From: Escherichia phage Av-05
Sequence record: KM190144
Reading direction: 5' to 3' (one strand)
Length of the DNA: 64,000 nt
Part shown: piece by piece, positions 10,533 through 13,960 of the stretch
Layout: every line of letters begins with the position of its first letter
How positions within the stretch are numbered: position 1 is the stretch's first letter
Program-made: the position numbers and the translations under genes
The notes under the pieces: model-generated
Seen by the model: only the letters and a program-made list of their open reading frames with translations
What the model was told of the DNA's origin: nothing
Databases searched by the model: none

Positions 10533-10557
10533 TGAAAAACCCCTCCGTGTGGAGGGG
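10533..10557 (-). terminator. Rho-independent terminator after NAMPT-like gene
   Basis: Hairpin CCCCTCC-GTGT-GGAGGGG with minus-strand T-run. Confidence 0.55.
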
Positions 10558-10570
10558 AATGATTATGCTG

Positions 10571-12286
10571 TTAAAGCTGTGACAAAGCTCTTTGGCGAAT
10601 TTCTTCAAGATCCTCATCAACAAACAGTTTACCATTAACAAAAACTGTTCTAAGCTCGTTATCAGGGTCAGATACCTGATTTATACCAAGGTTATCTACC
10701 AGCTTCAACTCACCACTCTCATCACGAACAACTTTCACAAAGCCTTTCGCAGATTTCTTACCAAGATCAGTTTTAGGCTCTTTTACGACCATTACTTGTC
10801 TGCCATCAATCACAGCACCAGTAGCTTTTACAGCCATACCCAGAGAATCGCGGGTTGTGTATTGCGTTGTATAAGAACCTACACCAAACACAATGTTACT
10901 GGAAGCAAATCCTCGTTCTTCAAGGCGCTCAAAGATCTCTTTAGCACGAGAGATTGTGATAGAGTCTCCGTAGATTAATCCAACATGGCTATCAAGAACT
11001 TTGTAACCCAAAGAGTTTACACTACCACCGAATATTTCCCACAGGCATTGTACAGCACCTTTGACCTCCTCCTTGGTCAGGTAATTTGCAAATTCATCAC
11101 CTGTCAAAGATTTCCAATCTACAAGGTTCCCTCCTGAATCCCGCATCCAGGAAGTGTCTCGGGACATCTCATACAAAGTAACATATTTGCCATTCTTAAA
11201 CAGCACAGCATCCATGTTACAGCACTGCCCCGTTGCCCATTCTTCCTGAGAGCACACACGATAGCCAGCAATGATGTGTTCTGGGATCCCACTGTCCGGT
11301 CTGAAGACCAGCTTGCCATCACGAGACATAATCTCATCTTTCAGGATTTTGGCTGCCTGTGTAATGATTGCCCAAAAATCATAGCTGTCTGCGACGTATG
11401 AAGCATAGCCTGACGGAAAAATCTCTGTTGCATAACGCTTTAAGAACTCAACTTCAGCACGAAAACGTGCTTCAGCAAGCGACATATCAGGATTTTCCTG
11501 CTGGATACGCTCAACAATAAAACCAATGTTCGTTGTCGCTACGCTATGCTCAGATGCGGGAATAGACCCAGCAACAAAGCGACCTTTCATGTTGTAATAG
11601 CGATTTGCGTAAACAATCGCTGGAATTGTATCTGTGCCCATTGAGCTAATCAGTTGCCCAAATTCGCTCTGTGCTGCGTCATGTGTTCCAGCTTCACCAC
11701 GGTATGCAAAACAATGGTTTTGGAAAGCAACATGATCGTTGTTATCGCATGTTTTCTTTGCCCACAGTTCTGACAGTTTACGGTATTGCCAGAAAGTCGT
11801 TGCCGTGGTAATTGTCTTCCAAGTCTCCGAGGAGATCACGCTCTCAAGGAAGTTTGGCAGCCAGTAAAAATCAGGATGTGTGTTCTGAATCGTGAACATC
11901 GGAACCTGAACCGGAACAAGTGTTCCTTCAGGCAAGGCTCTAATTTCAATTGGGAGATAGCCAAGATCATGCAATCTCTCAAAACCCCAAGTTTCAACAG
12001 CATCCTTCCCAATGCTCAAATCACAAATCTCTTTGTAATCCTGAATCGCTTTTTCTTTCGGCAAAGCGAAGAAATTATTATTAAACATGTCGATCAGGAA
12101 CCACTTGATAAATCCCTGAAGACCAGCAAACATTACACGATGGTCATCATCTGCAAAGTGTACAAAGTGTTTCGCATTGCGTGGTGTCATGTTGTCTTGA
12201 ACAAACTGTGAACGTCTATCGTACATCGAGATGTGACTTGGTTTATAAAAATCTGCGAACAGTAATGGACTTTCTTTGTGAAGCAT
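10571..12286 (-). CDS. nadV: Nicotinamide phosphoribosyltransferase family protein (NAMPT-like; candidate Namat of NARP1)
   Basis: 571-aa ORF; N-terminal LLFADFYKPSHISMY matches the NAMPT substrate-binding signature; GGAGGG RBS. Confidence 0.8.
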   Translation of the reverse strand: MLHKESPLLFADFYKPSHISMYDRRSQFVQDNMTPRNAKHFVHFADDDHRVMFAGLQGFIKWFLIDMFNNNFFALPKEKAIQDYKEICDLSIGKDAVETWGFERLHDLGYLPIEIRALPEGTLVPVQVPMFTIQNTHPDFYWLPNFLESVISSETWKTITTATTFWQYRKLSELWAKKTCDNNDHVAFQNHCFAYRGEAGTHDAAQSEFGQLISSMGTDTIPAIVYANRYYNMKGRFVAGSIPASEHSVATTNIGFIVERIQQENPDMSLAEARFRAEVEFLKRYATEIFPSGYASYVADSYDFWAIITQAAKILKDEIMSRDGKLVFRPDSGIPEHIIAGYRVCSQEEWATGQCCNMDAVLFKNGKYVTLYEMSRDTSWMRDSGGNLVDWKSLTGDEFANYLTKEEVKGAVQCLWEIFGGSVNSLGYKVLDSHVGLIYGDSITISRAKEIFERLEERGFASSNIVFGVGSYTTQYTTRDSLGMAVKATGAVIDGRQVMVVKEPKTDLGKKSAKGFVKVVRDESGELKLVDNLGINQVSDPDNELRTVFVNGKLFVDEDLEEIRQRALSQL

Positions 12287-12349
12287 GATCTCAACCCTCC
12301 AACCTAAAAGCGTATTTTTTCACTAAAACGTACCTTTGTCAAGATGTAA

Positions 12350-13159
12350 TTAAAAATTTTCTGTCCAGTCGTAGTACGCATAGATTTCATCAACACCACC
12401 GTTGAGAATAAATTCTTTCCCACGAGAGAAAATTCCATGCGTGACATACAAGACAACACGTTTAGCGCCAGCAGCTTTCAAGGCTTGGGCAAGGTTTGTA
12501 AACGTAAACCCACCATCGCAGATATCATCGACAATCAGGCATGTCTTCCCACCAACATCACCAAAAACCGTTGTGCCTGTGATTGCCCCTGTCGAAACAT
12601 CACGGACTTTACCAGCCTCCACCACACACAGATCCAAAGCATCAGCTACTTTCTGAGCCTTCTTACGTGCTCCTGCATCTGGAGCAATCAGGACAAGGGA
12701 TTTGTCAGAAAGCAGGTTAAAATCAAAATTCATTCCAAGAAACAACTCCGCTTGAGAACGAATTTTCACGTTATCAATCAGCGCTGAGGATACGTCACTG
12801 TGTGGATCATCGACGATAACTTTGTGGAAACCAAGTGAGTTAATCATTGTGGCAAAGACTTTCACCGACAGAGATTCTCCAGGGTTCATAACTCGGTCTT
12901 GTCGAGCATACGGAATGTACGGCAGGTGTAAAACCTTTTCCACACCAACATCCAAATTGCCAAGACGATTAACTGCATCAACAAGCAGTGCCAAACACAT
13001 CACATCCTGTGAGTTCTTGAGTCTAGCGAAGATATCCACAAAACCAATCGAACCTTTAGGGACATAGTGCATATCGATCTTCACCTGCTCCTCACCACCA
13101 CTAAATGTGAAATGGTCAACTGGCACATGTAGCTTGTTCAAACTCAAACGAATATTCAT
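12350..13159 (-). CDS. prs: Ribose-phosphate pyrophosphokinase family protein (Prs-like; candidate Adps of NARP1)
   Basis: PYARQDR motif (HLPYIPYARQDRV) and ribose-phosphate binding loop LIVDDICDGGFT. Confidence 0.8.
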   Translation of the reverse strand: MNIRLSLNKLHVPVDHFTFSGGEEQVKIDMHYVPKGSIGFVDIFARLKNSQDVMCLALLVDAVNRLGNLDVGVEKVLHLPYIPYARQDRVMNPGESLSVKVFATMINSLGFHKVIVDDPHSDVSSALIDNVKIRSQAELFLGMNFDFNLLSDKSLVLIAPDAGARKKAQKVADALDLCVVEAGKVRDVSTGAITGTTVFGDVGGKTCLIVDDICDGGFTFTNLAQALKAAGAKRVVLYVTHGIFSRGKEFILNGGVDEIYAYYDWTENF

Positions 13160-13581
13160 GATTTATCTCCTCTGATACGATTGACGATAATATAATTTCT
13201 TGGTTTCACGTTACCATCAGAATCCTGAAATCCTGATCTAACACGCCTGATATAACCAAAGCTCTCCATCCGAGACAGAAATTCAGACACTTTGGTTCGT
13301 GAGTTTTCATTCCACCCCAACAGGCCACACAAGGATTGTTGTGACGGAAAGAATACCAGTTCCCCACCCAGAGGGTTCAGATTCTTGAAATACTCGTATC
13401 TCCACAACAAGCGTATCAGTCTTTGCAGATCGCTTGGTGATAACCGTTCATCAAAAACCCACTCTGTCGGGACAGCGATGTACGACCCAGCTTTCGGATT
13501 TACATGGAAACCCCCAACATTAGATTTCAAGGCAAACTCCGGTGTGTAATCCAACACCGAGAATGCTACCCATAACCCCAC
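13156..13581 (-). CDS. Hypothetical protein (141 aa), first gene of the prs/NAMPT operon; GTG start
   Basis: ORF track; 4-nt overlap with prs-like gene. Confidence 0.45.
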   Translation of the reverse strand: MGLWVAFSVLDYTPEFALKSNVGGFHVNPKAGSYIAVPTEWVFDERLSPSDLQRLIRLLWRYEYFKNLNPLGGELVFFPSQQSLCGLLGWNENSRTKVSEFLSRMESFGYIRRVRSGFQDSDGNVKPRNYIIVNRIRGDKS

Positions 13582-13596
13582 ACAATGTCAACCCCT

Positions 13597-13645
13597 CCCA
13601 TATGTCCCCATTTCAGGGACATGGGTATGTCCCCGTTTTGGGGAC
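13597..13645. promoter_or_regulatory. Pair of palindromic operator-like sites (TGTCCC-N-GGGACA) upstream of the prs/NAMPT operon
   Basis: ATGTCCC-CATTTCA-GGGACAT and TGTCCCC-GTTTT-GGGGACA tandem inverted repeats. Confidence 0.4.
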
Positions 13646-13651
13646 ACAATA

Positions 13652-13960
13652 CTAACTGATCAAATTAAACTAACATACAAGATCTATTAAATATAATACT
13701 ACGTATTATAATACTATGATCTATTTAATATGATCTAATATAATATAAATTATATAATATAATTTAATATAATACTACGTATTATATATTATAATATATT
13801 ATATAAAATTTATTTAAAATACATTAAGTCTTGAAGAATGTCAAGACTTGATATTAAATATTTTTGTTGATATGATTCGATTGAGTCGAATCGTATGGTT
13901 CGATGATTTCGAATCATAGAGTTCATAGAGTTTTGCCTGAAAGCGTGAGTCGATGAGACT
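13652..13960. repeat. Extremely AT-rich region with direct and inverted repeats (candidate replication origin / divergent control region)
   Basis: About 200 bp of >90 percent A+T with AATACTACGTATTATA twice; hairpins AAGTCTTGA/TCAAGACTT and GATTCGA/TCGAATC; tandem ATAGAGTTC. Confidence 0.4.

Follow-up and report, generated by a model that had tools for sequence, protein, structure and literature searches.

NARP1, as described by Osterman et al. (bioRxiv 10.1101/2024.02.11.579819), is an NAD+ reconstitution pathway of phages in which Adps, a homolog of the phosphoribosyl pyrophosphate (PRPP) synthetase Prs, pyrophosphorylates ADP-ribose (ADPR) to ADPR pyrophosphate (ADPR-PP), and Namat, a homolog of the nicotinamide phosphoribosyltransferase NAMPT, makes NAD+ from ADPR-PP and nicotinamide; between them, the two enzymes reverse the NAD+ cleavage carried out by defences such as SIR2-HerA, Thoeris I and DSR. 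According to the same study, the two genes suffice for function in heterologous hosts, and the pathway of Escherichia phage JohannRWettstein (Bas63, accession MZ501086) works in a host that has neither pncC nor nadR (bioRxiv 10.1101/2024.02.11.579819). The genome of Escherichia phage Av-05 (sequence record KM190144), of which a stretch of 64,000 nucleotides was analysed (the window), contains a Prs-like gene and a NAMPT-like gene side by side, preceded by a small gene called gene A below. Judged by homology, the pair is very probably NARP1 (Adps plus Namat) and not canonical Prs/NadV, with gene A forming a separate DNA-binding module conserved in its lineage.

Namat can be recognised by a "selectivity clamp" signature that Lan et al. 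found in Namat only (PMC12774641). It comprises a clamp helix (SCH) with the motif GSX-phi-X-phi-X-phi-TRD, in which the aromatic residues that stack on adenine occupy positions 3 and 7 and position 5 is "most often" aromatic, and a selectivity-clamp loop (SCL) whose residue 3 is Arg, Lys or Tyr, the following residue stacking on adenine if residue 3 is Lys or Tyr (PMC12774641). Two further systems invite comparison. In NARP1-AP of Vibrio phage Gary, Adps and Namat are accompanied by the Macro-domain protein Adpp, an ADPR-1''-phosphate phosphatase that enables the phage to overcome aRES defence (bioRxiv 10.64898/2026.01.28.702374). NARP2 (Nampt/NadV plus a bifunctional Nmnat, as in Vibrio phage KVP40) resembles NARP1 in countering NAD+ depletion with a NAMPT-family enzyme, but uses PRPP and needs the Nmnat partner.

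The adps-namat operon

Inspection of open reading frames (ORFs) and motifs across the window recovered every feature of the locus listed by the original prediction, all on the minus strand. The Prs homolog directly precedes the NAMPT homolog, as that prediction had it: adps (12350..13159, 269 amino acids, with the motifs LPYIPYARQDRV and VDDICDGGFTF) is separated by 63 nt from namat (12286..10571, 571 amino acids). The two genes are adjacent on the same strand and thus within the ten genes that Osterman et al. allowed between adps and a Namat homolog (bioRxiv 10.1101/2024.02.11.579819). Gene A lies immediately upstream, the TGA of its ORF overlapping the ATG of adps as ATGA. A sigma-70-type promoter for gene A, adps and namat is predicted at 13563..13591 (TTGACA-N17-TAGCAT), with a transcription start expected near 13556, and a stem-loop resembling an intrinsic terminator (CCCCTCC-ACAC-GGAGGGG with a T-run, 10540..10557) begins 14 nt past the namat stop, at the end of the operon. 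Promoter, gene A, adps, namat and terminator would make up a single minus-strand early transcription unit.

Searched by sequence against the PDB, the window Namat matches the crystallised SPbetaL1 Namat best (9w5x/9w5w, E 6e-124), the matches to Xanthomonas Nampt (6e-52) and human NAMPT (about 1e-48) being far weaker. The protein is 41% identical to Bas63 Namat over the full length and shares with this genetically validated enzyme an insertion of about 66 residues that SPbetaL1 Namat does not have. Residues 470-480 (GSYTTQYTTRD) fit the clamp-helix motif, which across the window and Bas63 reads GSYT(T/Y)QY(T/M)TRD; Y472 and Y476 align with F392 and Y396 of SPbetaL1, and position 5 is Thr, not an aromatic residue. 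A NARP2-type Nampt (CcrSC), in contrast, has GGGMATADMDRD at the position of the clamp motif, without the aromatics. The clamp loop is TPR-NAK39-H40 in the window and TPR-SDK-W in Bas63, the Lys being kept and His standing in place of Trp. All of the SPbetaL1 ligand-contact residues checked in the alignment (21/21) are conserved or match Bas63, and at the four variable ligand-contact positions (K39, A194, S442, Y472) the window is identical to Bas63. The catalytic residues F189, R192, D215, R306 and D308 of SPbetaL1 Namat, together with the catalytic His, correspond to F193, R196, D219, R329, D331 and H247 of the window protein. Replacements at two of the catalytic positions of the pathway abolish activity according to the published work: R306G/A in Namat, and K162A in Adps (SPbetaL1 K162A being the inactive control).

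Adps and Prs are not resolved by pairwise BLAST (the bit scores of the window Adps are 92 with SPbetaL1 Adps and 87 with E. coli Prs), and profile tests were therefore used. On a hidden Markov model of Adps only, built from 12 Namat-linked phage Adps of which none is from Vequintavirinae, the window protein scores 277.5 bits, compared with 156-273 bits for the members when each was left out in turn and 130.6 bits for E. coli Prs. On the NCBIfam Prs models it reaches at most 121.5 bits against cut-offs of 296-536 (121.5 versus 297 in the best-scoring case; E. coli Prs reaches 533), and it passes neither a curated Prs equivalog model nor PRK01259, missing all Prs equivalog cut-offs by more than 175 bits; the Adps of Bas63 and SPbetaL1 miss these cut-offs too. 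In the alignment its K184 takes the place of K162, the catalytic lysine of SPbetaL1 Adps. Thus, whether aligned by motif, by residue or by profile, the pair falls with Adps/Namat and not with Prs/NadV. The original prediction had proposed the match to NARP1, and it is borne out; it had also held that Prs/NadV and Adps/Namat could not be told apart by sequence alone, which no longer holds, the published Namat signature being matched (PMC12774641) and profiles separating Adps.

The layout agrees with that of the two best-characterised NARP1 loci. Bas63 (genes 79-80) has the same order, adps then namat, with a short spacer, and its Namat is likewise of the long form (Adps 40%, Namat 41% identical to the window proteins); Bas63 is a Felixounavirus with an experimentally validated operon, whereas the window phage is Vequintavirinae-like and its operon is known by homology, and Bas63 has no gene A homolog and no dyads upstream, and a clamp-loop Trp instead of His. 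Bacillus phage SPbetaL1 (Adps is encoded by gene 190 and Namat by gene 191; structures 9w5w/9w5x, PMC12774641) has the same two-gene layout, and its Namat core (F189, R192, D215, R306, D308, GD, GS, TRD) and Adps catalytic lysine are conserved in the window; identity to the window proteins is 39% for Namat and 35% for Adps, its Namat is 80 amino acids shorter for want of two insertions, and its clamp-loop Arg40 stacks directly where the window has Lys followed by His.

The lineage has already been catalogued as NARP1. The operon is about 94% identical to that of Escherichia phage vB_EcoM_TH18 (an unclassified member of the Vequintavirinae with 133.9 kb and a marmot as its source) and to those of three fragmentary relatives, beyond which the phage collection gave no further megablast-level match. 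The TH18 orthologs of Adps and Namat are 92-94% identical to the window proteins, and both are listed by Osterman et al.: the Adps in Table S1, with Namat flagged "Yes" within ten genes, and the Namat in Table S2 as "Adps-associated" and not "Nmnat-associated" (bioRxiv 10.1101/2024.02.11.579819). The operon is an ordinary copy of an already described NARP1, not a new system.

It is also apparently the core two-gene version. A domain scan of 13 ORFs around the operon detected no Macro domain in gene A or the 12 flanking ORFs, and no Nmnat or NadR domain in the flanking ORFs. The Macro-domain phosphatase of NARP1-AP, which is likewise a three-gene operon around Adps and Namat, is encoded between the two enzymes, whereas the third gene of the window lies upstream and encodes a winged-helix protein. 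The Nmnat that NARP2 requires was not found among the 13 ORFs either, and the NARP2-type Nampt has no aromatic clamp motif, which the window Namat has. In the mechanism proposed, an NAD-depleting defence (SIR2-HerA, Thoeris I, DSR, Kongming or others) would cleave NAD+ to ADPR and nicotinamide, Adps would pyrophosphorylate ADPR with ATP to ADPR-PP, and Namat would couple ADPR-PP to nicotinamide to regenerate NAD+ directly; both enzymatic steps have been shown for Bas63 and SPbetaL1 and are assigned to the window proteins by homology. As no Adpp was found around the operon, the pathway is predicted to be ineffective against defences of the aRES type, which yield ADPR-1''-phosphate.

Several features of the two enzyme genes are recorded here. 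Compared with crystallised SPbetaL1 Namat, the window Namat has insertions at 11260-11065 (residues ~343-408) and ~11525-11460 (residues ~255-275), the larger of which is common to Bas63 Namat in position but barely in sequence, and on which the structure paper is silent. The spacer (12287..12349) contains a promoter-like TTGACA-N17-AAAAAT (12342-12314), a candidate by sequence that is preceded by TG, and a strong GGAGG ribosome-binding site; it may be an internal promoter allowing independent expression of namat. A homing HNH endonuclease gene separates adps from namat in phiTE and FBKp34, and in phiTE another one splits the Namat gene itself.

Gene A, the dyads and a possible replication origin

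The original prediction described gene A as a 141-amino-acid gene translationally coupled to adps. The ATGA overlap is present, but the length needs correction: although an ORF of 141 codons extends to GTG 13581 (13581..13156), the protein probably has 124 amino acids and starts at TTG 13530 (13156..13530, minus strand). The promoter, which is conserved, lies within the first 17 codons of the longer ORF (13591-13563); the homologs P0002 and P0003 begin at the equivalent of residue 18; and with this start two dyad-symmetric sites upstream, described below, are placed at -116/-91, as in PVP-SE1, KB57, KP13-16, FBKp34 and Hena1.

Gene A belongs to phrog_8453 (function unknown). Its similarity to known DNA-binding families is weak: no MarR/Crp-type regulator family model is passed (18.3 bits to HTH_Crp_2, cut-off 27), and there is no NCBIfam match and no significant match to Pfam RepA_N or DnaD. 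An AlphaFold model (pLDDT 79.6) predicts a winged helix with an N-terminal extension, its best structural neighbours being an uncharacterised Vibrio domain, the ORC2 winged helix and the N-domains of DnaB and DnaD; in fold it comes nearest to the N-domains of replication initiators of the RepA_N and DnaD types. Homologs were found in only 72 phage records, all of them large myoviruses resembling Vequintavirinae or Stephanstirmvirinae. A word-indexed protein search with gene A gave only 3 matches and an exhaustive search 24, several of them spurious; P0004, P0009 and P0019 were rejected as matches to long repetitive proteins. More generally, P0004, P0009, P0013, P0019 and P0022 are very long and repetitive and match residues ~17-86 of gene A repeatedly, apparently as compositional or repeat artefacts; P0004 does so 53 times (E 1e-124), and P0019 consists of tandem repeats of a unit of about 60 amino acids not obviously related to gene A.

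Gene A comes first after a divergent intergenic region in all of the loci examined. A TTGACA-N17 promoter precedes it in all of these loci except SSBI34, where no clear one was found, and is in the same place in PVP-SE1, KB57, phiTE, W70, Kashira, Hena1 and KP13-16. The two TGTCCC-N-GGGACA palindromes noted upstream by the original prediction are there: a promoter-proximal dyad (TGTCCC-TGAAAT-GGGGACA, TGTCCCCATTTCAGGGACA; 13603..13621), 11 bp upstream of the -35 hexamer, and a distal dyad (TGTCCCC-AAAAC-GGGGACA, TGTCCCCGTTTTGGGGACA; 13628..13646). TH18 has only the proximal one, in identical form. Shuffling gives an expectation of 0.01 occurrences of the dyad pattern per window. Across relatives the consensus is T(G/A)TNCC-N4-6-GGGNA(C/T)A, often followed by ATTAG, and two half-site positions covary between lineages (GTCCCC/GGGGAC, ATTCC/GGAAT, ATGCC/GGCAT). 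In 10 of 12 loci the 200 nt ahead of gene A contain a dyad, compared with 13 matches in 110 kb elsewhere. There are 1-3 copies of the dyad, located just upstream of the -35 hexamer at about -115/-90, or at -65 to -80 where there is a single copy. PVP-SE1, KB57 and Hena1 have a third copy between the -10 hexamer and the ribosome-binding site, a position taken in the window by a dyad or hairpin CGGTGT-N6-ACACCG (13539..13560, minus strand), in the predicted 5' untranslated region just upstream of a GGAG ribosome-binding site.

We infer that the gene A product binds the dyads as a dimer and regulates its own promoter. A gene A dimer on dyads flanking this promoter would determine how strongly the entire transcript, with NARP1, is expressed; indeed, whatever binds the dyads would control NARP1 expression, because NARP1 sits behind the same promoter. 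Recognition by a protein fits better than formation of a hairpin, since the three copies in Hena1 keep the same asymmetric arms (TATACCC...GGGAATA) while their loops differ. Hairpins in the gene A mRNA are unlikely, the palindromes lying upstream of the conserved -35 hexamer and those of Hena1 having a central A-A mismatch in 3/3 copies, and terminators were rejected because no T-run follows the palindromes on either strand. A further palindrome at 33347-33367 was considered as a sign of a genome-wide regulatory motif and discarded as a chance match inside coding sequence (CPQCGGT); this third match lies at the end of a small Cys-rich, zinc-ribbon-like ORF (33276-33432, terminating in CPQCGGTGVKKDGTGLCFHGISCPCDKCSPKC). 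The conserved leader TAGTATTGT is no commoner elsewhere than expected by chance.

As to its role, gene A may encode an autoregulator or an origin-binding protein, or one protein that is both. That gene A, the dyads and the neighbouring AT-rich segment constitute a replication origin with its initiator or an origin-accessory protein, NARP1 being merely located behind the promoter, is a tentative proposal and on balance unlikely. We hold with less confidence its fuller form, that this is the origin and origin-binding protein of the large rV5-like phages, that the protein also represses transcription from its own promoter, and that NARP1 is the first cargo placed there for immediate expression. 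Either is compatible with the assignment of the enzyme pair to NARP1 and competes only with gene A as a plain autoregulator. Two PHROG profiles match gene A, one annotated "replication initiation protein" (E 3e-4), the other "DnaD-like helicase loader" (E 1e-3), and the dyads are iteron-like direct repeats with a spacing of 25 bp (24-26 bp in relatives). They abut an AT-rich stretch (13650..13870, 13% GC) between the dyads and back-to-back divergent promoters, which includes the 200 nt of lowest GC content in the window (13% GC, 13662-13861) as well as its maximum of GATC density (4 sites within 150 nt) and long AT palindromes; similar GATC-rich AT tracts occur in PVP-SE1, KB57, W70, phiTE and L020. 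The longer homologs of gene A (P0018, P0021 and P0023, 233-253 amino acids) have disordered acidic tails ending in DWVPF, TVPF and DPPF. These resemble the C-terminal tip of E. coli SSB, DDDIPF.

The fold and profile matches are all weak, however, and winged helices are generic. Compared with the RepA_N N-terminal domain and the DnaD/DnaB winged helices (PDB 4pta, 5kbj, 2v79, 8ojj, 5wtn), the modelled gene A fold would correspond to the winged-helix domain only: gene A is a single small domain, with no C-terminal part for helicase recruitment or loading. The lambda O protein works at dyad-symmetric iterons next to an AT-rich tract. The candidate sites of the window, dyad-symmetric direct repeats beside an AT-rich region, are like those of the RepA_N/DnaD and lambda O systems in this respect, but they flank a promoter and are not inside the gene. 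No DnaA boxes are present. The GC skew changes sign here only in the way it does wherever gene orientation changes, and is therefore uninformative; the authors of the rV5 genome likewise found that skew tracks orientation and that the origin could not be placed (PMC3606486). Finally, sites that flank the -35 hexamer and, in relatives, overlap the ribosome-binding site are no less characteristic of simple autorepression.

Other observations concern the same intergenic region. The segment 13650-13870 contains repeated ATAATACGTAGTATTAT palindromes and long AT inverted repeats, and may be a DNA-unwinding element or merely a promoter region hostile to assembly. TH18 is rearranged across it, without the distal dyad, and contigs of the related phages 18-1-2 and 24-2-1 end there. 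In the contig that encodes P0018 (L020, 810-1240), three TGTTNCC-N4-6-GGGAACA dyads flank an AT-rich, GATC-containing tract. Within 13826-13916 of the window, a palindrome AAGTCTTGACATTCTTCAAGACTT provides back-to-back -35-like hexamers for divergent promoters, and a second pair of dyads (GATTCGA-N5-TCGAATC and GGTTCGA-N4-TTCGAATC), in 23-nt tandem at 13871-13916, past a plus-strand promoter-like site at 13848-13876, may be operators for the rightward genes.

Relation of gene A to NARP1 and other readings

Gene A is directly upstream of NARP1 in TH18, KB57, phiTE, Hena1, KP13-16 and FBKp34. One gene intervenes in PVP-SE1 (a second winged helix-turn-helix protein), in ABPH49 and Kashira (a phosphatase of the HAD family) and in SSBI34 (a small ORF). 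The two modules nevertheless dissociate both ways. The complete genome of W70 keeps gene A, one dyad and the promoter, but tblastn found in it no homolog of Adps, Namat or Prs, and the metagenomic contig L020, with a distant gene A homolog of 233 amino acids and its three dyads of the same type, lacks adps over the 1.4 kb that follow. Conversely, the Phapecoctavirus-like phage J-01 has adps-namat first at the same divergent junction with neither gene A nor dyads, and the NARP1 loci of Bas63, SPbetaL1 and FADO have no gene A. NARP1 would thus be cargo behind an independent DNA-binding module; on this sequence comparison, gene A is not supported as a NARP1 component, nor are the dyads supported as NARP1-specific operators. 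Accordingly, two suggestions of the original prediction, gene A as a third member of the system and dedicated regulation through the palindromes, are not sustained by these loci.

It is in this light improbable that the three genes form one system in which gene A is the dedicated regulator or sensor of NARP1, binding the palindromes and inducing the operon in response to a drop in NAD+ or an increase in ADPR. The ATGA overlap of gene A with adps in both the window and KB57, and the position of gene A directly or one gene upstream of NARP1 in the ten relatives named, would agree with it, as would the presence of nadR and pnuC across the shared divergent promoter region, on its opposite arm, in KP13-16 and FBKp34 and a faint match of the second winged-helix protein of PVP-SE1 to the Pfam family "wHTH-PRTase associated". 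Besides the dissociation of the modules, however, the 124-amino-acid single winged helix has no evident ligand-binding domain, two genes suffice for NARP1 in heterologous hosts, and a published survey of additional genes in NARP1 operons highlights the Macro-domain phosphatase and not gene A (bioRxiv 10.64898/2026.01.28.702374).

Least probable, and close to being dismissed, is that ordinary Prs and NadV/Nampt make PRPP and then nicotinamide mononucleotide (NMN), from which host NadR or PncC would complete NAD+, boosting NAD+ supply rather than recycling ADPR: database annotation, generic models (TIGR01251, a broad subfamily, 146.6 versus a cut-off of 113; NF006629, 474 versus 405), Pfam matches (Pribosyltran_N, Pribosyl_synth, NAPRTase) and the residual PRPP activity of Namat in vitro (PMC12774641) agree with this, but the generic models do not discriminate, because the validated Namats of Bas63 and SPbetaL1 both pass NF006629 and Bas63 Adps passes TIGR01251 (SPbetaL1 Adps, with 106, falls just short), and the missed Prs equivalog cut-offs, an Adps-profile score that is typical of Adps and more than twice that of E. 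coli Prs, the clamp motif that NARP2-type Nampt does not have, and the independence of the Bas63 pathway from host pncC and nadR (bioRxiv 10.1101/2024.02.11.579819) all argue the other way.

Some points tell against our interpretation of NARP1 behind an independent gene A module. The function of the pair is assigned by homology, at about 40% identity to tested proteins; the residue after the clamp-loop lysine is His where Bas63 has Trp, and stacking of this His on adenine is assumed; and Namat homologs keep some PRPP-dependent NMN synthesis in vitro, so that some classical salvage is possible (PMC12774641). Gene A and NARP1 are syntenic in most of the lineages examined and translationally coupled in the window and in KB57, and may have some functional link. 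The binding of gene A to the dyads is purely our inference; another protein could bind them, or they could act as RNA hairpins if transcribed from a promoter-like site at 13844-13816.

Some neighbouring genes in the relatives deserve mention. In Acinetobacter phage ABPH49 (L010) and Serratia phage Kashira (L011), the HAD-family phosphatase between gene A and adps (4405-4914; Pfam HAD_SAK_2, E 3e-11) could be a non-Macro analogue of the Adpp of NARP1-AP. In Klebsiella phages KP13-16 (L016, 503-2567) and FBKp34 (L018, 589-2530), NadR and PnuC are encoded on the opposite divergent arm, and the gene A promoter region thus has NARP1 on one side and this nicotinamide-riboside salvage pair, back to back with it, on the other. 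PVP-SE1 gp097 (L006, 4375-4935) is a small winged helix-turn-helix protein with faint matches to several HTH families, that to "wHTH-PRTase associated" (17.6 bits) being below the cut-off.

Genomic surroundings and implications

On the minus strand at 4068-9659, beyond the terminator that ends the operon, 14 tRNA genes are clustered, with small ORFs interspersed; they are those for Phe, Leu, Pro, Asn, Lys, Ser (three), Gln, Gly, Tyr, Cys, Thr and Met.

The locus adds little to the biology of NARP1: publications already cover the pathway and its distribution, the enzymes, and how their structure accounts for the choice of substrate. Namat can be distinguished from Nampt by sequence, and the annotations "ribose-phosphate pyrophosphokinase" and "nicotinamide phosphoribosyltransferase" carried by this group of phages need replacing. 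The phage is predicted to resist NAD+ depletion of the SIR2, Thoeris and DSR types, but not aRES. The literature consulted on rV5-like phages defines no origin or early regulator; the module of gene A and dyads is conserved across Vequintavirinae-like and Stephanstirmvirinae-like phages.

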